Below are positions 14,142 to 45,171 of a stretch of DNA of 64,000 bases, piece by piece. The notes under the pieces were generated by a model. That model was not told where the DNA came from and did no database searches. It saw only the letters and a program-made list of their open reading frames with translations. The position numbers were made by a program, and so were the translations under genes. Every line of letters begins with the position of its first letter. The first letter of the stretch is position 1. The stretch is from Nitrospirota bacterium (GTDB taxonomy: Bacteria; Nitrospirota; Thermodesulfovibrionia; UBA6902; DSMQ01), in NCBI GenBank assembly GCA_016212185.1, contig JACRGX010000061.1, positions 4,333-68,332 of the forward strand, in the 5' to 3' direction.

Positions 14142-14145
14142 GAAG

Positions 14146-15792: not shown

Positions 15793-15953
15793 GTTTTCAA
15801 TACCCAATTCCGAAAGTCTTCGGGACCGTGGGGTTTCCTTATACTTCCCTCCACCTTGACGGGGGAGGGCGAGGGTGGGGGTGATTAAGATGCTGTTTCC
15901 ACCCTCCCCTTCATCCCCTCCCGTCAAGGGAGGGGAGACTTTAGGATACCCTG
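15793..15953. mobile_element. MITE-like GC-rich palindromic dispersed element, copy A (~160 bp)
   Basis: Near-identical to 32243..32404, and its core matches 25905..26020. It has long imperfect inverted arms cccttgacgggggagggcgagggtggggg / caccctcccc..tcccctcccgtcaaggg. It lies between the radical SAM gene and the Memo fusion gene. The track ORF 15715..16032 is just its translation. Confidence 0.8.
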
Positions 15954-15989
15954 CGATATTCGCCATTTCTCTAAAATTATTGCTATCCC

Positions 15990-16964
15990 TCATCCCCATA
16001 CCCCCGGAATGACAGCACCGCAGAATCTGCACCTGCCTCCGGAAATATTATTCCGCATAACTGCATAACCGATTCTCGCAATCAGAAGCTGTTTGCAGTG
16101 ATGACAGTATGTGTTCTCAGCATCGCTCCGCATATTGCCGATATAAACGTATCTGAGCCCTGCATCCATTGCCGCTGAGTGCGCATCCCTCAGCGTCTCA
16201 ACAGGTGTAGGGGGCAGATTGGTTAATTTATAATACGGGAAAAACCTTGAAAAGTGTATCGGGATGTCGGCGCCGAGGTTTTTAACAATCCACCTGCACA
16301 TCTCCGTTATAGTTTTTACATCATCATTAAGAGTAGGGATAACGAGATTGGTAATCTCAAGCCATACACCTTCCCGTCTAAGCGTTACAAGAGTATCCAG
16401 CACGGGTTTCAGCATTCCCCCGCATATCCTGTTGTAAAAATCCTCTGTAAATGCCTTCAGGTCCACGTCTGCCGCATCCATATATTTTGAAAGCTCCCTC
16501 AGCGGTTTTTCATTAATATAACCGCATGTGTGCATAGTGTTTTTCACATTAAAATTCCGGGCGATTTTAGCAGTATCAAACATGTATTCATAAAATACAG
16601 TCGGCTCAGTGTAGGTGTAGGTTATGGTCCTGCAGTTGTTGAACATTGCCTGCCTTACGACTTCGTCAGGAGGCAGGTCAAGGTTATCGGCGTCTTCAGG
16701 CTTTGCCTGAGATATCTGCCAGTTCTGGCAGAACTTGCATCCGAGCACACAGCCTGCAGTTGCAATTGAAAATGCCGTTGTTGCGGGAAGGAAGTGATAA
16801 AACGGCTTTTTCTCAATGGGGTCAATGGCGACTGAACACGGCTTTCCGTACACAAGGCTGTAAAGGACGCCGCCTTTGTTAATCCTTGCCCTGCATCCGC
16901 CAACCTGATAATCCTCAAGCAGGCATTCCGTGGGGCAAAGCTCGCACAGCACCTTCTTGCTCAT
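15990..16964 (-). CDS. AmmeMemoRadiSam system radical SAM enzyme
   Basis: 324 aa. A CxxxCxxC-type cluster lies in TAGCVLGCKFCQNWQIS, with an extra N-terminal Cys motif CELCPTEC. It sits beside the Memo/AMMECR1 gene, as is typical for this three-component system. Confidence 0.85.
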   Translation of the reverse strand: MSKKVLCELCPTECLLEDYQVGGCRARINKGGVLYSLVYGKPCSVAIDPIEKKPFYHFLPATTAFSIATAGCVLGCKFCQNWQISQAKPEDADNLDLPPDEVVRQAMFNNCRTITYTYTEPTVFYEYMFDTAKIARNFNVKNTMHTCGYINEKPLRELSKYMDAADVDLKAFTEDFYNRICGGMLKPVLDTLVTLRREGVWLEITNLVIPTLNDDVKTITEMCRWIVKNLGADIPIHFSRFFPYYKLTNLPPTPVETLRDAHSAAMDAGLRYVYIGNMRSDAENTYCHHCKQLLIARIGYAVMRNNISGGRCRFCGAVIPGVWG

Positions 16965-17113
16965 GCTTAATTATAACTTAAAAAGGCTATTAACCACAGA
17001 GGACACAGGAAAAATATTCATTGTAAATTTATCATTGCAAAGTTAGCATTTTAAAATTTGCAATTTGAAATGATAATTGATAATTTTGCAATAATATTGT
17101 GGCAAGGACCGGT

Positions 17114-17314
17114 CTATTCCTTCTCCCGCCAGTACATCCCCTTATGCAGGCTCAGCCCTTTTTGAGAAATCACATTCTCATAATAAACCTTTCGCTCAAG
17201 ATAGCCTTCTATCCCTGGCATTAGATACTCCTGAAGAATGTTATAAGAGAGCGTCAGGGCTATGAGAATTGCCGAAAAATATGTTAAAAGCTTAAATTTC
17301 CTTTCGTTGTTCAT
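17114..17314 (-). CDS. small hypothetical membrane protein (one predicted TM helix)
   Basis: 66 aa. Hydrophobic stretch LLTYFSAILIALTLSYNIL. It starts 7 nt after the stop of the upstream antitoxin-like gene on the same strand. Confidence 0.3.
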   Translation of the reverse strand: MNNERKFKLLTYFSAILIALTLSYNILQEYLMPGIEGYLERKVYYENVISQKGLSLHKGMYWREKE

Positions 17315-17320
17315 GTGCGA

Positions 17321-17530
17321 TTATTTTTTCGCAAACATATCATTAAAAGAAACAGTTTTTAATTTCCCGGCTTTATAGGCTTTCAGTCTTTTCTCTGCTT
17401 CCTCTGCCCAAATTTTTTCAATTTCAGGGTCTGGAACATCCAGGCTTTTCATTAAGGCTTCAATCACTATGGATTTTTCCGCTGGTTTAAGGTGCAATGC
17501 TTTTGATATTATTTCTTTTGTTGGCGACAT
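17321..17530 (-). CDS. putative addiction-module antitoxin component (TIGR02574-like)
   Basis: 69 aa. MSPTKEIISKALHLKPAEKSIVIEALMKSLDVPDPEIEKIWAEEAEKRLKAYKAGKLKTVSFNDMF matches the conserved pattern of this family (ALxLP.EER..L...L..SLD.PD.EI...W..E...R...Y..G). Confidence 0.65.
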   Translation of the reverse strand: MSPTKEIISKALHLKPAEKSIVIEALMKSLDVPDPEIEKIWAEEAEKRLKAYKAGKLKTVSFNDMFAKK

Positions 17531-17760
17531 AATTTTTACCTCCCAAATATCTTTTATGTTCTGATAAATTATAGCATAAATTTACAAACTTAATTATAAG
17601 AATCCTGCGAGTTGGGTTGTACGGGTTAGGTCTTGAAATATAAGGCTGTATCAGAAAGGATATTCGTTGAGAGATACAACGGATTATTTAGACGTTCATT
17701 GCTGCTGTTGTCAGTAAGATGATAATAAAAACAGAATAAAAATGATATTTCAAGATCTGA

Positions 17761-17785
17761 CCCCAATCCCCGACCCCAATCCCCA
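17761..17785. repeat. CCCCAAT-type heptamer repeat (STRR1-like)
   Basis: ccccaatccccgaccccaatcccc, in an intergenic region. Confidence 0.6.
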
Positions 17786-17854
17786 CGTTAAAAGAATTTA
17801 CACAAAAGTCTTGACACTACCTAAAGCGGTTTCCACGCCCGACGATTAACTTTG

Positions 17855-17880
17855 CTTTACTTTATATGATATAAGTAAAG
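17855..17880 (+). promoter_or_regulatory. imperfect palindrome ctttactt-N10-aagtaaag, candidate operator of the AbrB/MazE-type gene
   Basis: Inverted arms CTTTACTT / AAGTAAAG lie 20 nt upstream of RBS GGAAGGAGG and the ATG at 17901. A TTGACA hexamer lies at 17811-17816. Confidence 0.4.
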
Positions 17881-17900
17881 CAAGGGAAGGAGGTGTTTTT

Positions 17901-18119
17901 ATGCAGACTGTGCGGCTTAGCTCAAAGAACCAAATAGTTATTCCCAAAGAGGCGCGTGAGGCAATGAAGCTTAAAGGACAGGATGAGCTTCTTGTTATTG
18001 TGAAAGGTGATGTTACTATAATTATGCCTAAGCCTAAAAGTTATAGAAAAGACCTCTCAGGCGCAGGCAAAGGGATATACGCAAAGGCATATCTTCACAA
18101 GGAACGGAAGTCTTGGTAA
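17901..18119 (+). CDS. AbrB/MazE/SpoVT-family DNA-binding protein (antitoxin-like), apparently orphan
   Basis: 72 aa. VRLSSKNQIVIPKEAREAMKLKGQDELLVIVKGDVTIIMPK is the swapped-hairpin AbrB-type domain. No toxin gene follows. Confidence 0.65.
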   Translation: MQTVRLSSKNQIVIPKEAREAMKLKGQDELLVIVKGDVTIIMPKPKSYRKDLSGAGKGIYAKAYLHKERKSW

Positions 18120-18165
18120 AACATTTTTACTTTACTTGTTCATACTAATTACTATCCACTGTTTA

Positions 18166-19377
18166 CTATTCACTGCCTTTATAACACCTATTGCATCTGA
18201 TGCACTCTGATATGTGCGGAGACGGTTTATTTCCCATCGGGCAGTCATGCCTGCTCGGGTAGCCGTCAGCCTTTCTTGAAAATAGCCCTGTAAATGCCGC
18301 AACAGGGCACAGATACCTGCACCAGAAGCGCTCTACTTTCAGATTTGCAATAAGCGACACGGCAACCAGCGTCCATGTAAAAACATTTCCGCTGAATGAA
18401 AACAGGGTTACATATGTTTCATAATTTCCGTAATCAATTCTTTTGCTGATAAAAACAATAGCTATAATCACCCCAAGCAGGACATATTTTAATCTGCGCC
18501 ATTTATCATCAGTTTCTTTCGGGACCTCCCATTTTTTAAACGGAAGCCTGCCTGCAAATTCGCACAATGCGCCAAACGGGCACAGCCATCCGCAGTAGAA
18601 TCTTCCCGCAATAATTATTGACAGTATTGTGCTTCCGGCTGTTACATACCAGATGATTGCAGAAGAGTGTCTGAGAAGCAGGAGGTTAAAAACATGCAGA
18701 ATTGAAAAAGGACTTGAAAGATATAAACCAATAATGATTATTCCTGCAAGCAAAGTGATGTCGCGCGACTTTAAAAATTTCTTTGAGCGCCTTGCCGCAA
18801 AATAGAAAGTCAGCGACGCTAAAAACAATAACAAATACCATATCCAGTTAATGTCTGTCGTCATGACCGCTTCTTCTGCGCCGGCAGTTAATCCGTAGAC
18901 GTTTAATGCGATTATTCTTGAGGAGTTTTTTATGGACTTTGCCAGCGCTGTAACGCTTACAGTGGCCCTGCTTATGCCGTCAATGTCTTTGTCAATTTCA
19001 AACGGGTCGCTGATGCTTTTGCCTATGAACCGGTTAAGATATTGCGGGCTTTCCATGTAATGAACGTAATTTTTTGTCTCGCTGTGTCCGATAATTTTTA
19101 TCCCTGTAATTTTCCCTTCCCTATTTAATGAAATTAGAGTTTTTATCGGGCCTGCATATCCTCTGATAGAGGGCATAATGTCATAAGTATTAAATGCTGC
19201 AATGCCTTCATCTGAAAAATAATGAGGGGGAGCGCCGCCTTTTTCGGCAAATGTGATGTCAGGCGCAATATCTTTGAGAAATTTCCTTTCATCAATGAAT
19301 TCCTCAGGATGCAGGAGGTATCCTAAAATGAGTGAGACGATTGCTGTGAGAAGCAGAATTATTCTAATTTTTTTCAT
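18166..19377 (-). CDS. membrane protein with periplasmic FMN-binding domain and NapH/NosR-like CX3CP motifs
   Basis: 403 aa. An N-terminal TM anchor is followed by an FMN_bind-like region (DGISRATVSVTALAKSI) and multiple TM helices with CGWLCPFG and CRYLCPV motifs. Confidence 0.55.
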   Translation of the reverse strand: MKKIRIILLLTAIVSLILGYLLHPEEFIDERKFLKDIAPDITFAEKGGAPPHYFSDEGIAAFNTYDIMPSIRGYAGPIKTLISLNREGKITGIKIIGHSETKNYVHYMESPQYLNRFIGKSISDPFEIDKDIDGISRATVSVTALAKSIKNSSRIIALNVYGLTAGAEEAVMTTDINWIWYLLLFLASLTFYFAARRSKKFLKSRDITLLAGIIIIGLYLSSPFSILHVFNLLLLRHSSAIIWYVTAGSTILSIIIAGRFYCGWLCPFGALCEFAGRLPFKKWEVPKETDDKWRRLKYVLLGVIIAIVFISKRIDYGNYETYVTLFSFSGNVFTWTLVAVSLIANLKVERFWCRYLCPVAAFTGLFSRKADGYPSRHDCPMGNKPSPHISECIRCNRCYKGSE

Positions 19378-19448
19378 GTTTGACTCTTTATGTTTTATAC
19401 AACGGCATACATGTCCTTAAAACTTTAAGAATACAACAATGATTATTA

Positions 19449-19553
19449 TCTGTCATGCTGCAAAAATTTTTAAGTATTTGCCCTGAGCTATGTGTAAAAA
19501 GGCAGCATGACACTAATGTGTTGCCTTAAAGTTTTGCAGACATATATACCGTT
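19449..19553. repeat. family-2 structured repeat, short deletion derivative (copy 2)
   Basis: tgtcatgctgcaaaaattttt...ggcagcatgacactaatgtgttgcc shares the first hairpin module with 11644..11985 and 29254..29573. Confidence 0.6.
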
Positions 19554-19588
19554 GTTGTCCATTCTGAACCTTGTATTTAAACACAATA

Positions 19589-21795: not shown

Positions 21796-21957
21796 CCAGC
21801 AGGGACGAATACCTTCATAATTTCAGGAAAACAGTAAAGATTCTTTAATATCATGCTGCAAATTTTGTGGTTTTTTCTCAGGACTACTGAATAGAAGGCA
21901 GCATGACTCTGATGTACTGCCCTGAAATTTCTCAGGCATTATTCCTGCTGACTAATG
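21796..21957. repeat. family-2 structured repeat, 5' half (copy 3)
   Basis: cagggacgaataccttcataatttcaggaaaacagtaaaga...gcagcatgactctgatgtactgccctgaaatttctcagg is about 90% identical to the first 160 bp of copies 1 and 4. Confidence 0.7.
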
Positions 21958-22097
21958 CATTGGGATAACAGTTGGTTGAGAAGGTATCTGTACCGGCTAT
22001 TTGTGGAGAGGGGGGTAGTTTGAGAGCCGGATTTATATTGCTTCAATCCGGCCCGTAAAGCTTATGTCATATTGACAGTTTTACGTGACGCCATGGT

Positions 22098-25904: not shown

Positions 25905-26020
25905 TACTAAACCCTCCCCCTTGACGGGGGAGGGTAAGGGTGGGGGTGATAAGATGTTATTTTCACCCTCCCCTACATCCCCTCCCGTCAAGGGAGGGGA
26001 GATTTCGGGATGCCCCGCGG
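25905..26020. mobile_element. MITE-like GC-rich palindromic element, truncated copy B
   Basis: ccctcccccttgacgggggagggtaagggtgggggtgataagatgttattttcaccctcccctacatcccctcccgtcaagggagggga matches the core of copies A and C. It lies between cysK and the cysM-like gene. Confidence 0.75.
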
Positions 26021-26972: not shown

Positions 26973-26985
26973 AATATTGTTCAAA

Positions 26986-27064
26986 CTGTTTAACATTGTT
27001 TAAAAGGGGTTAAAACGATTTTAAACGGCGTTGAACGGTTTAAACTGCTTGAACTATTTGAATT
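26986..27064. repeat. TTGTTCAA-family degenerate tandem block
   Basis: attgttcaaactgtttaacattgtttaaaagg...gttgaacggtttaaactgcttgaactatttgaa. Confidence 0.7.
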
Positions 27065-27505
27065 ATGTTAAACAAATCTATCATTGAACAAATTTTTAAC
27101 CATGCCATTGAGACATACCCTAACGAGTGCTGCGGAATTGTGACAGGAGACAGGGACAATCAGACAGTCCACCTTTGCGAAAATATCCAGAACAGGCTTC
27201 ATGCAGAAGACCCTGTGAGACATCCGAGGGATGCGCGCACCGCATATCTTATTGACAGAAAAGAGTTTGAACGAATTGTGTCCTCTGCAAAGGAACAGGG
27301 CAAAGAAGTTATTGCCTTTTATCATTCTCATCCTGAACATGAATCGTATTTTTCTGAAGACGATGCCGCTGCCCAGACTGTCTTTGGAGAGCCTGAATTC
27401 CCCGGCGCCCTGCATGTGGTAATCTCCGTGAAAAACAAAAAAATTCATGATATGAAGTGCTTTAAATGGGACGGACAGGGTTTTGCTGAAAAGGAACTCA
27501 ATTAA
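27065..27505 (+). CDS. JAMM/MPN+ metalloprotease, Mec+-like (CysO-cysteine peptidase family)
   Basis: 146 aa. JAMM motif E..CG...HSHPEHESYFSEDD, with an upstream ECCGIV. Confidence 0.7.
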   Translation: MLNKSIIEQIFNHAIETYPNECCGIVTGDRDNQTVHLCENIQNRLHAEDPVRHPRDARTAYLIDRKEFERIVSSAKEQGKEVIAFYHSHPEHESYFSEDDAAAQTVFGEPEFPGALHVVISVKNKKIHDMKCFKWDGQGFAEKELN

Positions 27506-28437: not shown

Positions 28438-29214
28438 ATGAACGCCCTTGCTATTTTAACATCAGTGCCTTTTGAATCAAATATAATTCTCTCATGCCTG
28501 AAAAATATCCGTAAATTCAGGATGGCAGGAAAGGTTGTTTCTAAGGGCAGAATTGCAGGGCATGATATCTTACTTATGAACACAGGCATCGGGAAGGTTA
28601 ATGCCGCACACGCTGTAACTGCCCTTATTGAGCATTATCCGCTGAAGTGCGTTATCAATTCAGGCGCGGGCGGAGCTTATCCGCACTCAGTGCTTGCGGT
28701 TGGAGATATTGCAGTTGCGTCAAAGGAAATTTACGGGGATGAAGGAGTAATGTCTCCAGGCGGCTGGAAGGATTTGAGAGCAATCGGGATTCCGGTTGCG
28801 CAAGTCGGGAAGAAAAAATATTTCAATGAATTTCCATTGGACAAAAAATTTCTTAAAATAACTATAAATATTTTACGCATTACGCATCACGCATCACGTC
28901 CCTCCCCACTGCCCCCTCTCCCGATGTGTCGGGAAGGGGGGTGGGGGAGGGTGAAGTTAGGCAATTTCCTCACGCTGTCGTCTGTGACAGGCACGCATAA
29001 AAGAGCCATTGAGCTTGAAAAACGGTTTAATGCTATTTGCGAAAACATGGAAGGCGCTGCCATTGCCCATGTCTGCGCAATGTACAAGATTCCCATGCTT
29101 GAAATCAGGGGGATAAGCAATATTGCCGGCGTGCATGATAAGAGAAAGTGGAACCTAAAACTCGCCTCTGAAAATTGTCAGGATACAGTGCTGGAGATAA
29201 TTGCCGGGCTTTAG
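28438..29214 (+). CDS. mqnB: futalosine hydrolase / MTA-SAH nucleosidase family (MqnB-like)
   Basis: Nucleoside phosphorylase-I fold: ALAILTSVPFE..., GIGKVNAAHAVTALIE, VINSGAGGAY, EGAAIAHVC. The gene carries a ~90-bp in-frame GC-rich palindromic insertion. The track ORF start at 28192 is an upstream artefact. Confidence 0.65.
   Translation: MNALAILTSVPFESNIILSCLKNIRKFRMAGKVVSKGRIAGHDILLMNTGIGKVNAAHAVTALIEHYPLKCVINSGAGGAYPHSVLAVGDIAVASKEIYGDEGVMSPGGWKDLRAIGIPVAQVGKKKYFNEFPLDKKFLKITINILRITHHASRPSPLPPLPMCREGGWGRVKLGNFLTLSSVTGTHKRAIELEKRFNAICENMEGAAIAHVCAMYKIPMLEIRGISNIAGVHDKRKWNLKLASENCQDTVLEIIAGL
28872..28955. repeat. in-frame insertion: (CGCATCA) heptamers plus a GC-rich palindrome inside mqnB
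   Basis: cgcattacgcatcacgcatcacg is followed by tccctccccactgccccctctcccga-tgtg-tcgggaaggggggtgggggaggg. It is translated as RITHHASRPSPLPPLPMCREGGWGRVKLG. Confidence 0.75.
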
Positions 29215-29235
29215 CAGAACAAAGGCATGTATCCT

Positions 29236-29591
29236 TGCATGGTTATACGCAGGGACGAATACCTTCAAAATTTCAGGAAAGCAGTAAAGATTTTTCAATG
29301 TCATGCTGCAAATTTTCAAAGTTTTTCCGCAAAGCCGTTTATAAAGGCAGCATGACTTTAATGTACTGCCCTGAAATTCTTCAGGCATCCATCCCTGCTG
29401 ACCAATGCATAGAGCTGAACGCAGGTATAGGTGTCTGAAAAAGCTTTAGAGCAACACCGCAGAATGTCATGTTGCCTTTTGGAGATGTCGGTTTAAAGAG
29501 AAAACTCTAAAGTTTGCAACATGACTTGTAATTATTATCGTTGCGTTCTAAAGATTTTGAAGATATCTATACCTGCATGGTTATACGCAGG
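29236..29591. mobile_element. family-2 structured repeat, full copy 4, flanked by an 18-bp direct repeat
   Basis: The direct repeat tgcatggttatacgcagg occurs at 29236-29253 and 29574-29591. The core 29254..29573 is about 90% identical to 11644..11985. It lies between mqnB and moaA. Confidence 0.8.
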
Positions 29592-29603
29592 CATTATGCT
29601 AAA

Positions 29604-30587
29604 TCATCCCCCGATTTTTGACATGGGTCTTAATGTTTTGATGTCTATACGGCTGCTGCAGGCAATATCATGCCCTTCGGGCTTTATTTCTATGGCAAGT
29701 TTTATGAGCCGTTCAATCTCAGAGTCCGGCGCGCCGCTTCTGAGCGGCGCCTTTAAATCAATCTCTGTCTCTGAAAAAAGGCAGGGTCTGAGCTTGCCGT
29801 CGGCAGTAAGGCGGAGACGGTTGCATTCGTCACAAAACTGATGGGAGATGGCATTTATAAAGCCTACGACGCCTGCTGCGCCCTCAAACCTGAAATATCT
29901 TGCAGGCCCGGATTTTCTTATTTTTACCGGAGTAAGCGCGCCTACCTTTTCCACAATGGATTTTATCTCATTTATCGGAATATATTTTTCCGGGCTCCAT
30001 ATTTCTCTGGCGCCGATAGGCATAAATTCTATAAAACGCACCTGATAGGATTTTTTCAGTGTTAACTTTGCAAAGGCTTCTATCTCGTCGTTATTAAAGC
30101 CTCTGATTGCCACCATGTTTATTTTTACAGGGGTAAGCCCGGCATTTTCAGCGCGCTCAATTCCCCTGAGCACGTTATTAATGTCCCCGCCCCTTGTTAT
30201 TTCCCTGTATCTTTCAGGTTTAAGCGAATCAAGGCTGACATTTACCCGCCTGAGCCCGGCTCCTGCAATTTCATCCGCATATTTTTCAAGGAGCAGTCCA
30301 TTGGTTGTAAGGCTGATGTCTTCAATGCCGTCAAGGGCATGAAGCGAGGAAATAAGATAAGTGATGTTTTTCCTTGCAAGCGGCTCGCCGCCTGTGATTC
30401 TCACTTTTTTGACGCCCAGCGATGACGCAATCCTGACTATTCTTATAATCTCTTCATATGCAAGGATGTTCTTATGCGCAATGGATTTTACTCCTTCTGC
30501 GGACATACAGTAGATGCACCTGAGATTGCATCTGTCGGTGACGGATATTCTCAGGTAGTCTATGGTTCTTCCAAACGGGTCGTTCAA
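29604..30587 (-). CDS. moaA: GTP 3',8-cyclase MoaA (molybdenum cofactor biosynthesis radical SAM enzyme)
   Basis: 327 aa. The cluster is CNLRCIYC, followed by GGEPLARKN and a C-terminal FCDECNRLRLTADGKLRPCLF. Confidence 0.9.
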   Translation of the reverse strand: MNDPFGRTIDYLRISVTDRCNLRCIYCMSAEGVKSIAHKNILAYEEIIRIVRIASSLGVKKVRITGGEPLARKNITYLISSLHALDGIEDISLTTNGLLLEKYADEIAGAGLRRVNVSLDSLKPERYREITRGGDINNVLRGIERAENAGLTPVKINMVAIRGFNNDEIEAFAKLTLKKSYQVRFIEFMPIGAREIWSPEKYIPINEIKSIVEKVGALTPVKIRKSGPARYFRFEGAAGVVGFINAISHQFCDECNRLRLTADGKLRPCLFSETEIDLKAPLRSGAPDSEIERLIKLAIEIKPEGHDIACSSRIDIKTLRPMSKIGG

Positions 30588-31534
30588 TTTTTCTTCTTTT
30601 TTATAGGCTGGGGTTCGTCAATTTTTTTCTGTGCAGTTTTTGCCTCTTTTGAGTCGGGGAATTTCTCAATGAGCTTCTCAAGCGTGGTCCTTCCAATTTT
30701 ATCGTCATTAATGGCATAAAATGCAAGGCCCTCCTTAAGAAGCGCCTCCGGCACTTTATTGCTTTCAGGATTTTTTTCCAGAAGCTCTTCGTATGCAAGA
30801 ATGGCATCCCGGTATTCCTTGCTTCTGTAATAACTTTCCGCAATCCAGAAACGGGCATTGTCTGAGTATTCGTTTTCAGGGTAATCTTTGAGCATCGCTG
30901 TGAATTTTTCCCGCGCCTCTTTTATCCTGCCCGAGGAATATATTTCGTAGGCATCTGCATATGCATCTTTAACGGGTATCTTTGCTGGTTTTTCGCTTTT
31001 TACAGGTTCGGCCGGTATCTCCTCCTGTTTTAAATTTTCTGATTTTCTGGCTTCCTCCTTCTGTTTTTTGAGGGCAATGTTTTCAGATTCCAATGCGGAG
31101 ATTCTTTTTTTCAGGTCGCTCAGTGATAGTTCCAGTTCTTTTACCTGTATGAGAAGCGACTCTTTGCCGGTTGTCATATCTTTCGCAGTCTTTTCCGAAG
31201 AATATTTTGCCTCTTCAAAGCGGCCCATAAGCACCTGCACCTCGGTTGAAAGCGTCTGCATCTTCAGCATAAGGTCTGACAGCGCCTTGCCCGCAGCTTT
31301 TTGCTCATCTGCCAATTCCTGCACTTTGCCTAAAAGCTTTTCATCGCTTATAGGGATCTGGGTTTCTATTGCCTGGGATTTTTGTTTTATCTTTACAACT
31401 TCATTCCGGAGTTCATTAAGATTGTACTGGATCTTGTCCACATCCTGAGATGTGGCGCAGCCGGCGATAAAAATAAAAGCAAAAAGCAGTGAACAGTGAA
31501 CAGTGAACAGTGAACAGTATTTTTTATTTCTCAT
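30584..31534 (-). CDS. ybgF: Tol-Pal system lipoprotein YbgF/CpoB-like (coiled coil plus TPR)
   Basis: The lipoprotein signal is MRNKKYCSLFTVHCSLLFAFIFIAGC. A long coiled coil is followed by C-terminal TPRs (AYADAYEIYSSGRIKEAREKFTAMLKDYPENEYSDNARFWIAESYY). It closes the tolQRAB-pal operon. Confidence 0.7.
   Translation of the reverse strand: MRNKKYCSLFTVHCSLLFAFIFIAGCATSQDVDKIQYNLNELRNEVVKIKQKSQAIETQIPISDEKLLGKVQELADEQKAAGKALSDLMLKMQTLSTEVQVLMGRFEEAKYSSEKTAKDMTTGKESLLIQVKELELSLSDLKKRISALESENIALKKQKEEARKSENLKQEEIPAEPVKSEKPAKIPVKDAYADAYEIYSSGRIKEAREKFTAMLKDYPENEYSDNARFWIAESYYRSKEYRDAILAYEELLEKNPESNKVPEALLKEGLAFYAINDDKIGRTTLEKLIEKFPDSKEAKTAQKKIDEPQPIKKKKN
31487..31518. repeat. (CAGTGAA)x4 heptanucleotide tandem repeat inside the ybgF signal-peptide codons
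   Basis: cagtgaacagtgaacagtgaacagtgaacagt encodes LFTVHCSLFTVHC on the minus strand. Confidence 0.85.
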
Positions 31535-31565
31535 TTACCTTTTCCTATTCTTAATCTTAATTTTT

Positions 31566-31590
31566 TGCCCATCACGCATTACGCATCACG
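31566..31590. repeat. (CGCATCA)-type heptamer repeat
   Basis: catcacgcattacgcatcacgg lies in the pal-ybgF intergenic region. The same unit is inserted in mqnB at 28872. Confidence 0.6.
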
Positions 31591-31597
31591 GTCTTTC

Positions 31598-32209
31598 TCA
31601 TTTCCCGACAGCAAAATTCGCCCTCCTGTTTTTCTGGAAGCAGTCTTCTGTTTGTTCTGCGCATATAGGCTTTTCTTCGCCATAGCTTATCGTCTTTATT
31701 TTTTCCGATGCAATTCCGCTTGCGGTAAGATAGTCCCTTGCTGCATTGGCCCTTTTTTCTCCAAGTGCAAGGTTGTATTCGTTGGTTCCCCTTTCGTCGC
31801 AGTGGCCTTCTATTATTATTTTGACCCCTTTATTATTCTTCAGCCATGTCGCGGCAGAGTCCAGCGCAGGTCTTGCGTCTTCTTTTATGTCATATTTGTC
31901 AAAGTCAAAAAGAATATCTTTGAAAACAAATTCTGTTTTTACCTGTGCGGCAGACTCTTTTGACTGTATGGCGGATTCCTTAGGCTTTTGCCCCTTTCCT
32001 GACAGTTCTTCTTCAGCAATTTCCCTTTGAATCTCTGCGGGTTTTTGCAAAATTTTTTCCTCTGAAACCTCTTTCAGTCTTTCTTTCTTTTCCTCTGAGG
32101 CCTTAACAGGCTCTTCAGTCGGTTGAACCTCATATTTTTTCGCACAGCCTATTACTGTAAGCATCAGCAGGAATACAAAAAAAATTTTAATGTTTTGTTC
32201 CCATTGCAT
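31598..32209 (-). CDS. pal: peptidoglycan-associated lipoprotein Pal (OmpA-like domain)
   Basis: The lipoprotein signal is MQWEQNIKIFFVFLLMLTVIGC. The OmpA_C domain reads FDFDKYDIKEDARPALD...IIIEGHCDERGTNEYNLALGEKRANAARDYL. The track ORF extends N-terminally into MITE copy C; the start at 32209 is preferred. Confidence 0.85.
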   Translation of the reverse strand: MQWEQNIKIFFVFLLMLTVIGCAKKYEVQPTEEPVKASEEKKERLKEVSEEKILQKPAEIQREIAEEELSGKGQKPKESAIQSKESAAQVKTEFVFKDILFDFDKYDIKEDARPALDSAATWLKNNKGVKIIIEGHCDERGTNEYNLALGEKRANAARDYLTASGIASEKIKTISYGEEKPICAEQTEDCFQKNRRANFAVGK

Positions 32210-32242
32210 ATGCCGCTCCTTTCTGCTTTTAACTCGTATTAA

Positions 32243-32404
32243 ATTTTCAATACCCCATCCCGAAAGCCTTCGGGACTGTGGGGTGTCCTTATACTTCCCT
32301 CCCCCTTGACGGGGGAGGGCGAGGGTGGGGGTGATTAAAATGCTGTTTCCACCCTCCCCTTCATCCCCTCCCGTCAAGGGAGGGGAGACTTTAGGATACC
32401 CCGC
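32243..32404. mobile_element. MITE-like GC-rich palindromic dispersed element, copy C
   Basis: Near-identical to copy A over ~160 bp. It is inserted between the tolB stop and the pal start. Confidence 0.8.
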
Positions 32405-32424
32405 CGGCTCTGCGGCGGGGAGGT

Positions 32425-33684
32425 TCATTTAAGATACGGCGACCATTTGGGAGCCATTGCTTTAACTCCATTGGATGTAATTTTTCTTTCTCCAGTTTCG
32501 CCGGCACGCATTATCCACACCCCCTTTGTTCCATCCCTGTCCGAATCAAATGCTATGAACATGCCGTCAGGGGAAAATGACGGTGATTCATTATTTCCCT
32601 TCTCAGTAAGTTGACTGATTTCAAGGGTACTTAATTTTATCACAAAAATCTGATTATTCATATTCTTCCTTCCGACATAGGCAATTTCTTTTCCATCCGG
32701 AGACCATACAGGCGAGGTATTGTAATTGCCTTCAAACGTAAGCCTTCTTACGCTGCTGCCGTCTGCATTCATTATATAAATCTGGGGGCTGCCCCCCCTG
32801 TCGGATACAAAGGCAATCTTTGAGCCGTCCGGCGAGAAAACCGGCGATACATCAATGCCGAAGGACTCAGTGAGTTTTTTGGAGCCGCTTCCATCCATAT
32901 TCATAACATATATCTCAGGGCTGCCGTCTTTTGATGAAGAAAATGCAATGATATTATCAGGTGAGAAGCCTCCGACGAGATTGAGCCCTTTGGATGAAAA
33001 AAGCACTGTCTCATTGTAATTGTTAAGGTTTATGATGTAAATGCTCCATTCCTTATCCCTTTCCGAAGAATACGCCAGATACTCACTGCTATGCGACCAG
33101 TTATGGCTGAATGTAAGCCCCTTTACAACTATTTTCTGGTCGCTGTAGCCGTCAAAGTCCATCAGGTGAAGCTCTTTTTTCCCTGAAGCGTCAGTGATGT
33201 ATGCAATCCTGGTTCTGAAGACGCCATCCTGCCCGGTAATTACCTTATAGATGTTGTTGGAAATGCTGTGGGACAGCGTGCGGATAATATTTTCCCCTGC
33301 CTCATACTTTTTCCTGAGTATTTCCCTGTTTTCAATAAGGTCAAAGACTGACACATTAGCGGTGAGCACATTGTCTGCGACATTCACATCAATATTAACT
33401 GTAATCTCAGCGCCCTTAACTCCTGGCTCTAACGGGTTAAAGATTCCGGTGAAATCAAGGTCGTTTTTGACAATCTCTGTAAGTTTTTCCGCCTCTTTTG
33501 AACCGGAGAAAGCGAATGATACCGGAAGTTTTCTTAATGCCGGCGATGTTATATCAATGTAGATCTTGGCATCAGCAGAACACAGAACACAGAACACAGA
33601 ACACAGAATACAGATAAAAGATAAAAATAACACTTTGTTAGCACGTCTGGATTCTGAGATCTGCAATCTGTGCTCTATTTTCAT
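32425..33684 (-). CDS. tolB: Tol-Pal system beta-propeller protein TolB
   Basis: 419 aa. A signal peptide is followed by a TolB N-domain and repeated WSPDG/FSPDG propeller blades. Confidence 0.9.
   Translation of the reverse strand: MKIEHRLQISESRRANKVLFLSFICILCSVFCVLCSADAKIYIDITSPALRKLPVSFAFSGSKEAEKLTEIVKNDLDFTGIFNPLEPGVKGAEITVNIDVNVADNVLTANVSVFDLIENREILRKKYEAGENIIRTLSHSISNNIYKVITGQDGVFRTRIAYITDASGKKELHLMDFDGYSDQKIVVKGLTFSHNWSHSSEYLAYSSERDKEWSIYIINLNNYNETVLFSSKGLNLVGGFSPDNIIAFSSSKDGSPEIYVMNMDGSGSKKLTESFGIDVSPVFSPDGSKIAFVSDRGGSPQIYIMNADGSSVRRLTFEGNYNTSPVWSPDGKEIAYVGRKNMNNQIFVIKLSTLEISQLTEKGNNESPSFSPDGMFIAFDSDRDGTKGVWIMRAGETGERKITSNGVKAMAPKWSPYLK
33575..33612. repeat. (GTGTTCT)n / (CAGAACA)n heptanucleotide tandem repeat within the tolB signal-peptide codons
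   Basis: cagaacacagaacacagaacacagaacacagaatacag encodes ILCSVFCVLCS. Confidence 0.85.
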
Positions 33685-34373
33685 AGATAAAACCTTATCC
33701 CGATTTCCATTTCAACCGGAGGCGGTGGAAGGGGGCTTGCCTTTGAAACGGCATTAAGCGCCGAGCGGTCAAACAGGGCATTGCCTGATGACTTTTCTAT
33801 CCTTTGTGAGATTATTTTCCCGTCTCCTGAAATTTTTATTGATACCATTGTTTCAAGTCCTGAAGTTTTGATATCAGGATAAATCCACTGCTGCCAGATT
33901 CTGCGTGTGATAATGCTGTAATAAGAATCCGCATCGCCCTCTGCCCCTTCGCTGTGCACAGACGGCAAAATCCTGCCGCTGCTTTTTTTCCCCACTACCT
34001 GTACCTTGCTGCTTTTTTCCTTTAACTTTTTAAGGGCGGATAATTTTTCTATTGCACGAAGCCGCTCAATCTCTTTGGAAAATTTTTTAGCGGATTCCAG
34101 TGAAGCGTCCGGCTTGTGCTTTATTTCCGCATTTTTCTGAATCTCTTCTGCGTTAGTTTCTCCACGGTATGCCGTTTCTTCCGCAGGCTCAATTTCAAGC
34201 GGTTCAACTATATTGACAATATAGCTGCGGAATTCTTTCTGCCTTGATGCAAGCGGAACGGCTATTAAGGCAGCGAAAAGCAAGTGCAGTAATGCAGAGG
34301 CAATGACAATTTTTGAGATGTCCGGTTCTTTCCGGATGATGTAACGGTGACGGCTTAAAGTGGAGCGTCTCAT
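33681..34373 (-). CDS. tolA: TolA/TonB-family energy-transducer protein
   Basis: An N-terminal TM anchor and a Lys/Glu-rich helical linker precede a C-terminal TonB_C-like domain (ALFDRSALNAVSKASPLPPPP). The position between tolR and tolB supports TolA. Confidence 0.6.
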   Translation of the reverse strand: MRRSTLSRHRYIIRKEPDISKIVIASALLHLLFAALIAVPLASRQKEFRSYIVNIVEPLEIEPAEETAYRGETNAEEIQKNAEIKHKPDASLESAKKFSKEIERLRAIEKLSALKKLKEKSSKVQVVGKKSSGRILPSVHSEGAEGDADSYYSIITRRIWQQWIYPDIKTSGLETMVSIKISGDGKIISQRIEKSSGNALFDRSALNAVSKASPLPPPPVEMEIGIRFYL

Positions 34374-34759
34374 TTAAATAAGGTTTTTGGCTCAGTAACC
34401 ATCCCGAGCCTTTCTATCCCTATCTCTTTCAGCTCTCCCATTACTTCCACTACGAGCCCGTAAGGCACATCCTTGTCGGCTTTTAAAAAGACGTCTCTGC
34501 CGGATTTGCCTGCAAGCATTGATTTAAGTCCTTCCATGTTTACTGCCGACCTGTCAACATAAATACTGCCGTCTTTTTTGATTGTTATGACAATCCGCTC
34601 CGAGGGTGTCATCTCTTTGCCGCTTGTCTTGGGGAGGTTAACGTCCATGCCCTGCTGAAGCAGGGGGGCGGTAACCATGAAGATTACGAGCAGCACAAGC
34701 ATGACATCTACAAAAGGGGTGACGTTAATCTCAGAGAGTGCCTGTCTTTGTTTCTCCAT
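34370..34759 (-). CDS. tolR: biopolymer transport protein TolR/ExbD
   Basis: 129 aa. One TM helix and the ExbD fold (INVTPFVDVMLVLLVIFMV). Confidence 0.85.
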   Translation of the reverse strand: MEKQRQALSEINVTPFVDVMLVLLVIFMVTAPLLQQGMDVNLPKTSGKEMTPSERIVITIKKDGSIYVDRSAVNMEGLKSMLAGKSGRDVFLKADKDVPYGLVVEVMGELKEIGIERLGMVTEPKTLFK

Positions 34760-35390
34760 GATTCCTTATAAAAGAGTCTATTAATTCCTGTGAAAAGTCT
34801 TCCATGGCTATTATATTTTTGCGCACCCTGCTGAGGTAATAATTATAGGCGACTACTGCGGGAATTGCGGCTGCAAGCCCTGCGGCTGTGGCTATGAGGG
34901 ACTCAGCTATTCCCGGCGCAACAACTGCAAGCGAAGCTGAGCCGGCCCTGCCGATTCCCCTGAATGCATTCATTATTCCCCATACGGTGCCGAAGAGTCC
35001 GATAAATGGCGTAGTTGAGCCTGTTGTGGCAAGGAATGTGAGATACTTTTCAAGACGCGCCGCCTCTAAGGCCTCAATCCTTTTTAAATTTCTTTTTAAA
35101 TCGTCACGGAGTGCAGGTGCGTTCTCCTCTTCTGAATAAGCGGCGCGGAAGAGATTAACCAGCGGACTCAGCGTCATTCTTTTTGTAGACTGGTATAAGG
35201 CAGTGCGGTCTTTGCTTTTTGCGAAGGCGCGCTGGAATTCCTCTGACTCGCTTTCGAGCTTTGAAAGAAATCTGAACTTATAAAAAATAATGGCCCATGA
35301 AAATATGGAAAAGAAAAGCAAAACTAAGAGGACAATTTTTACGACAAACCCTGCCTGAAGTATGAGGTTTAGTACTGTATCGCCGCCCAT
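34731..35390 (-). CDS. tolQ: MotA/TolQ/ExbB proton channel protein TolQ
   Basis: 219 aa. Three TM helices and the conserved GLFGTVWGIMNAF motif. Confidence 0.85.
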   Translation of the reverse strand: MGGDTVLNLILQAGFVVKIVLLVLLFFSIFSWAIIFYKFRFLSKLESESEEFQRAFAKSKDRTALYQSTKRMTLSPLVNLFRAAYSEEENAPALRDDLKRNLKRIEALEAARLEKYLTFLATTGSTTPFIGLFGTVWGIMNAFRGIGRAGSASLAVVAPGIAESLIATAAGLAAAIPAVVAYNYYLSRVRKNIIAMEDFSQELIDSFIRNHGETKTGTL

Positions 35391-35575
35391 GACTATTAGA
35401 GTTTAGAAAAAAGCACTTAAAAAGTCAAAGAATTTGACACAAAGTTTTTCTTGACATAAAAATTCCCTTGTGCTAAAAATTGCACATATTTTGAAACCCA
35501 AACATATCTTAACATAACAAACTTGCTAACTCTCCCATTAAAGGCAATTTAAAAGTTTTTAACATAAAGAGCCAT

Positions 35576-37240
35576 ATGCTGACTGAAAATAAAAATAATT
35601 ATGATATTCGCATGGGGTTAATAGCATCAATTTCCTATACAATAATCGGATTATTAATCTATTCTGATGTAATTCTAAACGGGGTATTTGTATTTGATGA
35701 TTTTGATTATATTGTGTCTAATCCCCTTATCTGCGATATTTCTTCGTATGTCACAACTTTTGGTGACTTACGGTATGTTGTAGATTTATCGTTTGCATTT
35801 AATTATGCTGTCGGCGGTTATAACCCGTTTGGTTATCACCTCTTTAATGTTATTGTTCATATCTTAAACTCAATATTGGTTTTTTTTCTGATAGGACTGA
35901 TAATTGAAACTGCCGGCGGCAAAAGCAGTCAGAGGACATGGCAGGCAACGGCATTTTTGACCGGATTTCTTTTTCTTGTGCATCCGGTACAAACGCAGGC
36001 TATTTCTTTTGTGACGCAAAGGTTCACTTCTCTTGCAGTATTCTTTTACCTTCTGAGTATTCTTCTGTACATCAAGAGCCGTGTAATGTTTGAAATGAAT
36101 AGGATAGGGTTTGTTAAGTATGTAATTTGTATTCTATCAATTATAAGCACAGCGCTGGCTGTAAAGTCAAAGGAGACAGCAATTACTATTCCTTTTATTA
36201 TGGCAGTTTTTGAACTGCTGTTATTTAAAGATTCAGTATATTTTAAAAAGAGATTTTTCTTTTTGATACCCCATGCTCTTTCTCTAATTCTGATTCCAAT
36301 TTCATTGTTCGGACCTGACTGGGGACTGGTTGACAGCAGAGGCGTTACAGAGATGACGCGTCTGGCAAAATTACACGAAGCATCAGACCTATCGTCCTAT
36401 GAATATCTGATCACACAATTCAGGGTAATAATCAATTATATTGGATTACTTTTTCTGCCAATAAAACAAAGGGTGTTATATGATTACACAGCTTCTCATT
36501 CAATCTTTGAGATAAAAGTAATACTCTCCCTCTGTTTGCTTCTTTTAATTAGTTGGAGTGCGATATACTTGTGGAAAAAGGCGAAGGCTGCAGACCCGCA
36601 GTATGCGCCTGCATATCGGCTTTTTTCCATTGGAATTGTGTGGTTTTTTCTTACACTTTCCGTAGAGTCTTCAATAATTTCAATAAGGGATTTGATTTTT
36701 GAGCACAGGGTATATCTGCCGAGCGTTGGTTTTTTTGCATCAGTTTCTGCCTTAATCTCCTGGTTGATAGGAAGAAAAACGGGCAATTCCAATAGATTTA
36801 CGCTTGTGTTTTTTATTGTTCTTTTAGCCCTCGGCTTGCCGTTTTCTTTTACCGCATACCAGAGAAATAAGGTGTGGACTGATGAAGTGCGTTTCTGGAC
36901 TGATGTCGTAGAAAAAGAACCGCGATTGTATGTTTTTTATTATGACCGGGGTTTGGCATATTTAAGGAAAAATGAATACATGCCGGCGTTGCAGGATGTA
37001 TATAAAGTATTAAAACGTTATTCAGATGTAATAAATGAAAAGGTTCCGATGAGAGATACGGACTTTTCTTTAAAGAATCTGGCAAGAGCCTATGTGACAA
37101 AGGGGCAGATATTTTCCCGTCTCGGGGAAAACGATGAGGCAAATGTGGCATTTGAGCATTCATTAAAAATAATGTCAGGTTCTCTGGATATGAAGGATTT
37201 AATCAGGCCGGAAGACGCTATGGTATTATCATTGCCATAA
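35576..37240 (+). CDS. polytopic membrane protein with C-terminal TPR region, TMTC/PMT-like (DUF1736-type)
   Basis: 554 aa. There are about 11 TM helices. The N-terminal motif GVFVFDDFDYIVSNP resembles TMTC-family proteins. The C-terminus is TPR-like. Confidence 0.45.
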   Translation: MLTENKNNYDIRMGLIASISYTIIGLLIYSDVILNGVFVFDDFDYIVSNPLICDISSYVTTFGDLRYVVDLSFAFNYAVGGYNPFGYHLFNVIVHILNSILVFFLIGLIIETAGGKSSQRTWQATAFLTGFLFLVHPVQTQAISFVTQRFTSLAVFFYLLSILLYIKSRVMFEMNRIGFVKYVICILSIISTALAVKSKETAITIPFIMAVFELLLFKDSVYFKKRFFFLIPHALSLILIPISLFGPDWGLVDSRGVTEMTRLAKLHEASDLSSYEYLITQFRVIINYIGLLFLPIKQRVLYDYTASHSIFEIKVILSLCLLLLISWSAIYLWKKAKAADPQYAPAYRLFSIGIVWFFLTLSVESSIISIRDLIFEHRVYLPSVGFFASVSALISWLIGRKTGNSNRFTLVFFIVLLALGLPFSFTAYQRNKVWTDEVRFWTDVVEKEPRLYVFYYDRGLAYLRKNEYMPALQDVYKVLKRYSDVINEKVPMRDTDFSLKNLARAYVTKGQIFSRLGENDEANVAFEHSLKIMSGSLDMKDLIRPEDAMVLSLP

Positions 37241-37498
37241 TCTCATTTTGGATTGAGGCTATTACTTGTGGAAATCCGTGCCCCAGCCTGCAAAATATGC
37301 CCTTCCGGGCAAAGGTGTAAAACTTGAAAATAGCATTTACGGCAAGGGGCGGATTTATGAAAATCCTGAAGTCTTCGCGGACCTATAAACTTTCTAAATA
37401 TTTTTATAAAAATAGCCTTGTTGACAAACCTTTTCTACTATGTTACTTTTTCTACGTTTTTCCTCATTTATAATCTCTTGAAATTTTAAGGAGACGGG

Positions 37499-37918
37499 AT
37501 GTTAGAAATTAACAAGTGGTTTTTTGTCCAGCTGATTAATTTTCTGCTTCTTATCGTGCTTTTAAATCAAATTCTCTTCAAACCCCTTCTGCGCATGTTC
37601 AAGGAACGGCAGGACCGGATGAAAAACGCCCTTGACAGCGCAAAGACAATGGGGCTGGAAAAAGATGATTTAATAAACAAGATAAACGCAAGGCTCCTTG
37701 AAGTGAGACATCAGGCAAGGACCATTCACGAGGAATATAAGACTGATGGTTTAAATGTACAGAAGGGGTTTGTTGACACAGCCGGAAAAGAGGCATCTGA
37801 GATGACTGCAAGGGCATTGAAGGAACTTGGCGCCGAGGTTGAAAATTCAAGAAAGGCGCTGAAGTCAGAGGTAAATAAATTTGCCGATGAGATTACAAGA
37901 AAGCTGATAACGGTATGA
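37499..37918 (+). CDS. atpF2: F0F1 ATP synthase subunit b' (AtpF2)
   Basis: 139 aa. A single N-terminal TM helix precedes a long charged helix. It is the first of two b-type genes heading the atp cluster. Confidence 0.7.
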   Translation: MLEINKWFFVQLINFLLLIVLLNQILFKPLLRMFKERQDRMKNALDSAKTMGLEKDDLINKINARLLEVRHQARTIHEEYKTDGLNVQKGFVDTAGKEASEMTARALKELGAEVENSRKALKSEVNKFADEITRKLITV

Positions 37919-38526
37919 AGAGAAAAGTTAAAAGGTATAAGTTAATAATTAATAGTTTTTTACTGTTCACTGTTCACTGTTCACTGTTCACTGTTTCTTC
38001 GGTGTTTGCCTCTGAAGGGGCTGAGCATGCAGCTTCTTTTAAAGACATGCTCTGGCCTGTTCTAAATTTTGCGATTCTTGTTGCCATCCTTGTTAAATTT
38101 GGGCGTAAGCCTATCAGTGAATTCCTCAAAAAGCGCACTGAGCTTATTGAGAAATCCCTGAAAGAGGCTGAGGAGGCGAAGGAACTTGCAAAAAAGGCTT
38201 TTTCCGAAGTGCAGGCGAGGCTTTTAGGCATGGACAAAGAAATAAATAATATACTTGAGTCGGCAAAAAAGGCAGGGGAAAGGGAGAAAGAGGCGCTTAT
38301 TGCGCAGGGGGAAAGCCTGAAGAACAAGATAATTGAACAGGCAAAGGCAAACATAGAATATGAACTTCAAAAGGCAAAAAAGGCGATAAAATCAGAGGCG
38401 GCTCTTATGGCGCTTGAACTTGCCGAAAAACAGATAAAAGAAAAACTTGATGCAAAGGGGCATGAAAGGCTTACAGAGGAATATATCCGGAAAATTGCCC
38501 ATACTGCCGGAGAGGTTAAGAATTGA
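37915..38526 (+). CDS. atpF: F0F1 ATP synthase subunit b
   Basis: 203 aa. A TM helix precedes a long coiled-coil helix. The N-terminal LLFTVHCSLFTVSSVFA is encoded by a (TTCACTG)n tract at 37963..37996. Confidence 0.75.
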   Translation: MKRKVKRYKLIINSFLLFTVHCSLFTVSSVFASEGAEHAASFKDMLWPVLNFAILVAILVKFGRKPISEFLKKRTELIEKSLKEAEEAKELAKKAFSEVQARLLGMDKEINNILESAKKAGEREKEALIAQGESLKNKIIEQAKANIEYELQKAKKAIKSEAALMALELAEKQIKEKLDAKGHERLTEEYIRKIAHTAGEVKN

Positions 38527-40672: not shown

Positions 40673-40728
40673 CAACAGTGAACAGTGAACAATAAAAAAA
40701 TAAATATAAACAACTTCCGGATTAAGGC

Positions 40729-41689: not shown

Positions 41690-43114
<1,425 letters not shown>

Positions 43115-43163
43115 CAACAACAGTTAACTATTGACAGGTAACAGTAGACAGTGAAGAAAGACA

Positions 43164-45101: not shown

Positions 45102-45171
45102 CACTGCTTTAAGATAGCTGTTATTATTTCAAACTCTACACTGTTAACTGTCAACTGTTCACTGTTTTTAA

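Follow-up and report, generated by a model that had tools for sequence, protein, structure and literature searches.

The spacer between an mqnB-like gene and moaA in a contig of an uncultured Nitrospirota bacterium (JACRGX010000061.1) holds a non-coding repeat that stands between two identical sequences of 18 bp, and the question raised by this locus is whether the repeat is a mobile element that duplicated its target on insertion or a structured RNA. The DNA analysed (64,000 nucleotides, positions 4,333 to 68,332 of the contig, hereafter the window) had been read earlier from its letters alone, and this sequence-only reading had listed four dispersed copies of the repeat and a perfect 18-bp direct repeat around the fourth. 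All of these are present: a repeat finder run on the window recovers the four copies, none of them a chance match, and a search for the 18-mer TGCATGGTTATACGCAGG that tolerates up to three mismatches still gives exactly two matches in the window, where shuffles predict 0.02 (Table 1).

The two copies that had been described as full, copies 1 and 4, each consist of two homologous units of ~150 nt, A and B, placed in opposite orientation and separated by a linker of 22-33 nt. On the + strand of the window the A units have one orientation and the B units the other, and as the other units all have to be reverse-complemented to align with B, the dimer is an inverted pair. The core helix reads GCTGC/GCAGC in A and GTTGC/GCAAC in B, i.e. 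the differences are compensatory. The identity between copies 1 and 4, earlier put at ~90%, is 83.8% overall, with the B halves 94% alike and the A halves less alike. Units measure 145-157 bp and the dimer of copy 4 measures 328 bp.

Empty and filled sites between the mqnB-like gene and moaA

In the search for an empty site MoaA homologues were found by sequence, their contigs were fetched and the spacers were aligned. Four contigs, L096 and L097 (two Logan assemblies) and L094 and L095 (GCA_900218215 and an ENA assembly), encode a MoaA 94% identical to that of the window, have flanks 87-91.5% identical to it, and show a spacer of ~51 nt between the convergent mqnB-like gene and moaA. This spacer reads ...AAAGGCATGTATCCT-TGCATGGTTATACGCAGG-CATTATGC... 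(its left flank also written GGCATGTATCCT before TGCATGGTTATACGCAGG-CATTATGC), with a single 18-mer and no element, while the window has the same flanks but the 18-mer on each side of 320 bp. When aligned by BLAST, the two flanks overlap in the empty sites by exactly the same 18 subject bases. In L093, which is 100% identical to the window, the site is filled, and the contig ends inside the B unit of copy 4 (B4). The copy at 29254-29573 is a real insertion and the 18-bp repeat is its target duplication, as the sequence-only reading had suggested; the evidence is the one 18-mer in all four empty-site contigs.

An integrase, too, would turn the single core of an empty site into two cores at the filled one, and it was considered whether the dimer had been integrated as a small circle by site-specific recombination via an 18-bp core shared with the target, the 18-mers being attL and attR. 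The core is indeed part of an imperfect palindrome, and junctions of the tail-spacer-head kind are found repeatedly between units. However, the borders of copies 1 and 3 and of the dimer in L013 carry sequences other than TGCATGGTTATACGCAGG, so that there is no constant core, the spacers between units differ in sequence, and no recombinase gene was found near the element. Since the other dimers have different borders the 18-mer is locus-specific, as a duplicated target would be and a core carried by the element would not, and integration of this kind is hardly credible. Unit A starts with GCAGG and unit B finishes with TGC. As both stretches also count among the outer bases of the 18-mers, the target duplication can be read either as 18 bp or as 10 bp, in the latter case as ATGGTTATAC flanking a GCAGG...CCTGC element.

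The window and the L094 and L096 lineages are roughly equidistant (87.6-91.5% identity) and two of the three are empty, so one insertion is simpler than two precise deletions. Among more distant relatives L009 has a canonical monomer in this spacer, L103 and L104 have a different neighbour, and in L100-L102 (82% MoaA identity) the mqnB-like gene and moaA overlap, leaving no spacer; the dimer is found in none. Long palindromes flanked by short direct repeats are deletion hotspots. This, together with the many deletions seen within the family, speaks for the reversed order of events, in which the dimer and its repeat are ancestral and the relatives lost them by precise deletion between the 18-bp repeats. 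Such a history would demand two identical precise deletions in two roughly equidistant lineages, leaves the monomer or missing spacer of the distant relatives, never a dimer, to be accounted for, and still requires an earlier insertion for the duplication to exist; we regard it as very improbable. Judged from these alignments, the simplest history would be one insertion in the lineage of the window, after its split from relatives whose flanks have diverged by ~9-12%.

Recent mobility had been suggested for this copy. The dimer of copy 4 is 90.8% identical to the orthologue of copy 1 in the related genome JACQZD01, compared with 83.8% to copy 1 of its own genome, so recent here means after a split of ~10% and not very young. 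Presence/absence polymorphism was observed for copy 4, which is absent from L094-L097, and for a unit in L083, which is absent from the window and from L105. No coding capacity was found, as only mechanical open reading frames (ORFs) cross the element and indels between the copies leave no conserved reading frame. The empty sites support the earlier proposal of a non-autonomous mobile element.

The empty spacer resembles both ends of an old unit without the middle. Its left part, AAAGGCATGTAT, equals the first 12 nt of the full monomer in L009, which begins equally far from the mqnB-like stop codon, and sequence to the right resembles the consensus unit end (Table 1). At copies 1, 3 and 4 and in L013, L020 and L033 a relic end or mini-unit lies at a distance of 9-11 nt from units of the A/B type. 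As L013 is the orthologue of copy 1 this holds for all five independent loci examined, and it suggests a preference of the element for hairpins left by dead copies of itself as target. B4 as a descendant of an ancestral monomer in this spacer was ruled out, since the relic ends sit outside a complete B4. Insertion sequences (ISs) of five families, among them IS1397 and ISKpn1 (IS3 family) and IS621 and ISPpu9 (IS110 family), likewise insert into pre-existing intergenic palindromes (PMC1525189, PMC12288879), but these are autonomous and target the REPs of the host, whereas the element described here is non-autonomous and its target would be a relic of its own family. Insertion into relic palindromes of the own family would give nested arrays.

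Structure of the unit and upkeep of its hairpin

The core hairpin motif TGTCATGYTGC-N25-55-GCARCATGAC matches six times in the window with 0 matches expected. Hairpins had been predicted from internal inverted repeats, and for copies 1 and 4 the folding energy is indeed -121 to -131 kcal/mol whichever strand is taken (z = -7.6 to -9.1). In consensus, a unit forms a single long, imperfect hairpin of ~150 bp, palindromic over nearly its full length. It is made up of a basal helix ...AAM-GGCATATATGCC.../...GGCATATATGCC-KTT... (in the fuller consensus ...YAAM-GGCATATATGYC.../...GRCATATATGCC-KTTR...), followed by a second helix (AAACTTTAAGGCAAC/GTTGC...CTTAAAGTTT); next come an internal loop, asymmetric and conserved in every copy, and an inner helix of 10 bp that is invariant (GTCATGCTGC/GCAGCATGAC), and at the apex lies a variable region of ~40 nt. 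Terminal inverted repeats are present, the ends being either GGCATATATGCC, which is the sole short palindrome of the unit module and stands at each end, or GCAGG...CCTGC; the unit end is also written ...AAMGGCATATATGCC.

Covariation was analysed in an alignment of 39 sequences with a hand-completed structure of 45 pairs (1755 cells) and 500 shuffles. Standard pairs occupy 92.6% of the cells, compared with 85.2% in the shuffles and 34-45% when the partner is slid, both sides have changed in 27 of the 45 pairs, and the compensatory cells number 143 where 45.7 are expected, a value as high being reached in none of the shuffles. The hairpin is clearly maintained. There is in addition a bias between the strands, as mismatch cells on one strand are G.U in 139 cases and A.C in 28, with a G.U excess in 38 of the 39 copies, and for 32 of 38 units (p = 7e-5) it is the G.U-tolerant strand whose RNA is the more stable.

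These figures, and the fact that the spacer is occupied in a relative with ~72% identical flanks, are what would be expected if the units were primarily structured-RNA genes or cis-elements and their mobility incidental, the competing explanation that had been named for the repeat. Other results point away from it. Searches with Rfam 15 gave no family at gathering or permissive thresholds, the window yielding only two tRNAs at the gathering threshold, and the best sub-threshold matches were microRNA-precursor hairpins at chance level (e.g. 24 bits where the gathering score is 140). The orientation of units relative to flanking genes is mixed (8 sense, 13 antisense), scans of the units showed no excess of promoter-like or terminator-like sites over shuffles, orthologues carry deletions of whole helix arms, and relics and fragments are common. 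A large part of the G.U excess falls in the same columns of many copies and may therefore be inherited from a master copy instead of reflecting repeated selection, and compensatory changes in inverted repeats can come from template switching without any RNA (PMC8604942, PMC13100816). Abundant as the compensatory changes are, an RNA function is unneeded for the copy number, the insertion polymorphism and the decay of the family; it could be a side property, and as the primary identity of the units it is improbable.

RNA function, a single-stranded DNA intermediate and homogenisation of the arms are three candidate causes for the kept hairpin. The outermost 2-4 nt of the monomers vary from copy to copy, but within one copy they tend to complement each other, the frequency of Watson-Crick pairing at offsets 4 and 5 being 0.54 and 0.49 compared with 0.31 and 0.28 in cross-copy controls. 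A candidate explanation is template switching between the inverted arms, which homogenises and extends them (PMC8604942, PMC13100816, PMC7202029). Snap-back, in which the arms are rebuilt from each other at each move, was rejected on account of the asymmetric internal loops shared by all copies.

The family, its borders and its movement

A profile made from the six units of the window was run with nhmmer against the window and the fetched loci and found 39 full-length units of 145-157 nt, mostly from one related metagenome-assembled genome (MAG). Nearly all are monomers, and the monomer is the basic form of the family. A scan for the core motif in a collection of species-representative genomes returned 82 stretches; among the 80 that were listed, ~30 belong to the Nitrospirae MAG JACQZD01 and two to JACROO01, the remaining ones being unrelated sequences or unrelated repeat families. 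Contig L013 of JACQZD01 is syntenic with 10260-19344 of the window (87-92% identity) and contig L009 of JACROO01 with 28447-38318 (~70-84%). All units are intergenic, and ten ORFs adjoining them that were scanned are of housekeeping type (FKBP, transaldolase, PgpA, OsmC, HisI, DeoC and others). BLAST against plasmids and phages in distant mode gave no match to the element, and a literature search for MITEs (miniature transposable elements with inverted repeats) in Nitrospirae found no paper. The units belong to a repeat family of uncultured Nitrospirae bacteria that had not been described before. Contigs of related assemblies stop at or inside units (the end of L093, position 1 of L013, the start of L023 and the end of L026), so the family fragments the metagenome assemblies of this lineage.

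GC-rich repeats in a Desulfobulbus MAG (L006, L027, L029, L032, L055, L065, L080) and a Thiopseudomonas MAG (L049, L079) have the 11-mer stem TGTCATGCTGC...GCAGCATGAC in common with the Nitrospirae units. They were set aside as unrelated families, and the occurrence of this stem in several unrelated repeat families is probably coincidence. A third small hairpin repeat, gtcattccggcttgtccggaatc, flanks many of the JACQZD01 units (L024, L026, L031, L038, L045, L082), and the intergenic spacers of this MAG are mosaics of several repeat families.

Other copies lacking duplications and having ragged termini had been named in the sequence-only reading as the outcome that would argue against transposition, and in part this is what was seen. 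Among the other copies the unit in L035 alone has an exact repeat, an 11-bp AATGTATTTTT on both sides, and the flanks in L054 and L069 match at 8 of 10 positions; searched for just outside the palindrome, flanking repeats of at least 8/10 occur in 4 of 39 copies where 0.7 are expected, and most copies have none. The scarcity fits with age, since the copies are 70-90% alike and the direct repeats of MITEs decay over time (PMC10969869). Two further candidates for a duplicated target were discarded: duplications of 2-10 nt abutting the conserved GGCAT ends of the monomers, of which none exceeds chance, and complementarity of the monomer flanks as a palindromic duplicated target, where the adjacent 10-mers are not direct repeats.

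Orthologous copies show how units change in place. The orthologue of copy 1 is kept in L013, with a loss of 31 nt in the 3' arm of its B unit and with a mini-unit upstream of the copy that is lost in the window, and the orthologue of copy 3 in L098 (a 90% relative) is an A unit alone. The orthologue of copy 2 (L098 2764-2930), in the spacer between the spermidine-synthase-like and NosR-like genes, has the opposite orientation relative to the flanking genes; its interior is 92.6% identical to copy 2 and it contains a GC-rich insertion of 28 nt. Copy 2 is equally close to the non-orthologous unit of L083 (91.6% identity), so a flip in place and an independent insertion are indistinguishable. The A units of copies 1 and 3 have a common variant of the apical loop while their orthologues have the loop type of the A unit of copy 4 (A4), which points to sequence exchange between copies. 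Scanning metagenomes with the mqnB-like protein brought up contigs that were for the most part truncated, and also L083, whose monomer lies in the spacer between a cysteine synthase and a JAB gene; the window and L105 have other repeats there, so this is no clean empty site. For the unit in L035, synteny with the window ends before the unit.

By published definition a MITE has terminal inverted repeats and direct repeats that are gradually lost, lies in AT-rich intergenic DNA and gives a transcript with stable stem-loops (PMC10969869). The repeats studied here are small and non-coding, have terminal inverted repeats, show a duplication when compared with the empty site and occur as dispersed, polymorphic copies. 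A family of copies, a hairpin, an insertion polymorphism and a target duplication have all been observed directly, and we consider it probable that the repeats are a MITE-like family of non-autonomous elements, moved in trans by an enzyme encoded elsewhere. The inverted A-B dimer would then have moved as one piece into the spacer between the convergent mqnB-like and moaA genes, halfway into a short relic left by an older family member, by a trans-acting transposase that makes staggered cuts ~10-18 bp apart and prefers the hairpin or palindromic DNA of old copies. After insertion the copies would decay by internal and terminal deletion and exchange sequence among themselves, and their arms may be kept complementary, at least partly, by template switching at the DNA level between the inverted arms. 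Transcription of the element would give adjacent mRNAs additional stem-loops of very high stability.

Several observations weigh against this interpretation. No transposase and no full-length IS with matching ends was found in the window and the fetched loci, no transposase domain was found in the ten scanned ORFs adjoining units, and a scan of the fetched loci for solo ends, aimed at a full-length parent element, gave only short fragments. The duplication of 18 bp (or 10 bp) is long for a bacterial MITE, and most of the ~40 other copies show no flanking duplication. The outermost 2-4 nt vary and the best-conserved part is the interior helix, unlike in elements defined by ends to which a transposase binds, and the ratio of G.U to A.C hints at selection on a single strand, which double-stranded cut-and-paste would not predict. 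The odd features, i.e. the long duplication, the targeting of own relics, the conserved interior helix with variable tips and the strand-biased G.U, overturn nothing known by themselves, but there is a modest chance that they point to a structure-guided mobilisation for which no enzyme has been described. A single-stranded hairpin of fixed polarity would in that case be recognised via GTCATGCTGC/GCAGCATGAC and not via its tips, and would go into the loops of hairpins left behind by dead copies of the same element, with an unusually long duplication (10-18 bp).

Peel-and-paste transposition by HUH enzymes inserts beside a short fixed motif and without target duplication. That the units are moved in this manner as single-stranded hairpins by an HUH/Y1 enzyme, either REPIN-RAYT-like or derived from IS200/IS605, and not by a DDE transposase, is suggested by the unit being a long hairpin with two inverted ends, each with the short palindrome GGCATATATGCC, like a REP doublet (PMC3116915, PMC3333891), and by arrays in which, as in BIMEs, the units alternate in orientation and short spacers recur regularly (PMC2817692). 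The strand bias fits an intermediate of fixed polarity, and the lack of flanking duplications in most copies agrees as well. The likeness to REPINs and BIMEs moved by RAYT (Y1) transposases, in which two inverted palindrome-containing ends form one long hairpin, extends to persistence at the same loci and possibly to single-strand polarity (PMC3116915, PMC3337134, PMC3333891, PMC2817692). Against this, the sole insertion with a known empty site has a target duplication of 18 bp (at least 10 bp) and the unit in L035 one of 11 bp, whereas REPINs insert without duplication; the units are AT-rich and ~150 nt long, 3-6 times longer than the REP module of 20-40 nt, which is GC-rich; no conserved flanking tetranucleotide was identified, and no RAYT gene was found among the scanned ORFs adjoining units. 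Elements derived from IS200/IS605 have subterminal hairpins, no terminal inverted repeats and no duplication, while the units studied here have an end-to-end hairpin, inverted termini and a duplication. Movement by an HUH/Y1 enzyme is on these grounds unlikely.

With the MITE-like interpretation preferred, the size of the duplication can be compared with that of known elements. Correia and ERIC-like elements produce a duplication of 2 bp. For QMITE2 of Coxiella it is 7-9 bp, unlike the 18 bp (at least 10 bp) found here (PMC10969869). Correia/NEMIS elements of Neisseria, ERIC/IRU of enterobacteria, RUP/BOX of pneumococci and QMITE2, all bacterial MITEs that fold from end to end, are nevertheless the closest kin in kind (PMC10969869, PMC3184786, PMC2229807). 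In common with Correia, ERIC, RUP and QMITE2 the family has a size of ~100-350 bp, no coding capacity, AT-richness, many dispersed intergenic copies, inverted-repeat ends and a transcript or single strand that folds into a very stable stem-loop, and it has target direct repeats at young copies that have faded at old ones as well as nested, truncated and dimeric derivatives. It differs from them in that the interior 10-bp helix is best conserved and the outermost bases are variable, in its self-targeting, in the absence of sequence similarity and in having no known parent IS.

The results add a documented family of small mobile elements to a poorly studied uncultured lineage (Nitrospirae/Thermodesulfovibrionia-like groundwater MAGs), with an exact pair of empty and filled sites, seldom available where MITE-like repeats are known from metagenomes alone. 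The units between housekeeping genes form long hairpins and could alter mRNA ends; they break assemblies, and they are usable as markers for comparison at strain level.

Copies in the window and neighbouring repeats

The copy that had been placed at 19449-19553 and taken for a deletion derivative is instead a complete monomer, and being the best-scoring unit of the window, copy 2 is the canonical form. Copy 3, earlier regarded as a 5' half-copy, does consist of an A unit but carries a linker and a remnant of a B tail as well. The linker TGACCAATGCATAGAGCTGAAC is apparently made up of an 11-nt spacer and a degenerate 12-nt head fragment and is conserved in copies 3 and 4 and in L013. All copies are intergenic, as had been noted, but not all sit between gene 3' ends: copy 1 has the 3' end of an MFS/AmpG-like gene on one side, but on the other a small conserved ORF (11429-11605, -) faces it with its start and not with its 3' end. 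This ORF of 59 aa, MSTDHEKLKKVSAYLEEE..., is below the usual ORF cut-off and possibly ribbon-helix-helix-like, and a homologue of it adjoins the mqnB-like gene in L084 and L086.

Table 1. Positions in the window of the repeat units, their target and related fragments
Feature	Position	Strand	Remarks
Left half of pre-existing target, AAAGGCATGTATCCT	29221-29235	+	Putative relic of an older unit end; present in empty sites
Left 18-mer TGCATGGTTATACGCAGG	29236-29253	+	Final 5 nt, GCAGG, double as conserved first 5 nt of unit A
Unit A4	29249-29398	+	150-nt long hairpin, model forward orientation; nhmmer 90.9 bits; folds as single hairpin
A-B linker of copy 4, TGACCAATGCATAGAGCTGAAC	29399-29420	+	From alignments
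Unit B4	29421-29576	+ (coordinates)	156-nt long hairpin opposite to A4, model reverse orientation; 94% identical to B1; nhmmer 84.9 bits on - strand, 79.1 on +
Right 18-mer TGCATGGTTATACGCAGG	29574-29591	+	Initial 3 nt, TGC, double as conserved last 3 nt of unit B
Right half of putative relic	29592-29599	+	With preceding CAGG reads CAGGCATTATGC; resembles consensus unit end CAGGCATATATGCC
Copy 1, dimer	11645-11983	+	A1 11645-11794, junction 11795-11827, B1 11828-11983
Putative relic end before copy 1	11624-11635	+	Separated from copy 1 by a 9-nt spacer
Copy 2, complete monomer	19399-19556	+	Commonest subfamily; nhmmer 104 bits, top score in window
Copy 3	21799-21994	+	A3 21799-21948, linker 21949-21969, 15-nt B-tail remnant 21980-21994
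Isolated unit head fragment, 32 nt	15751-15782	+	Weak nhmmer match, E = 0.12; B-type head fragment at same place in L013

Other repeats occupy the spacers of the window as well. A second family of ~168 nt, rich in GGGGAGGG/CCCTCCCC, is found at 15787-15954, 32237-32404 and 25926-26019, two of the copies being 95% alike, and since L013 lacks the 15.8-kb copy at the corresponding site, this copy is polymorphic as well. Tandem arrays of the heptamer CAGTGAA and variants of it occur in both orientations at 1380-1534, 15510-15586, 31477-31519, 37959-37999, 40673-40716, 43111-43166 and 45133-45176, two of them abutting the tRNA genes at 1416-1487 (-) and 45172-45244 (+). Repeats rich in GTTCAA/GTTTAA fill spacers at 26973-27067, 51336-51416, 55460-55540 and 59726-59756 of the window and at 1039-1163 of L105; in the spacer between the cysteine synthase and the JAB gene the window and L105 each have a different version of this repeat, and L083 has the hairpin unit. 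At 17315-18140 of the window a segment of ~850 bp that is absent from L013 carries two small ORFs on opposite strands, one of them AbrB/MazE-like, and looks like a variable islet of toxin-antitoxin type.

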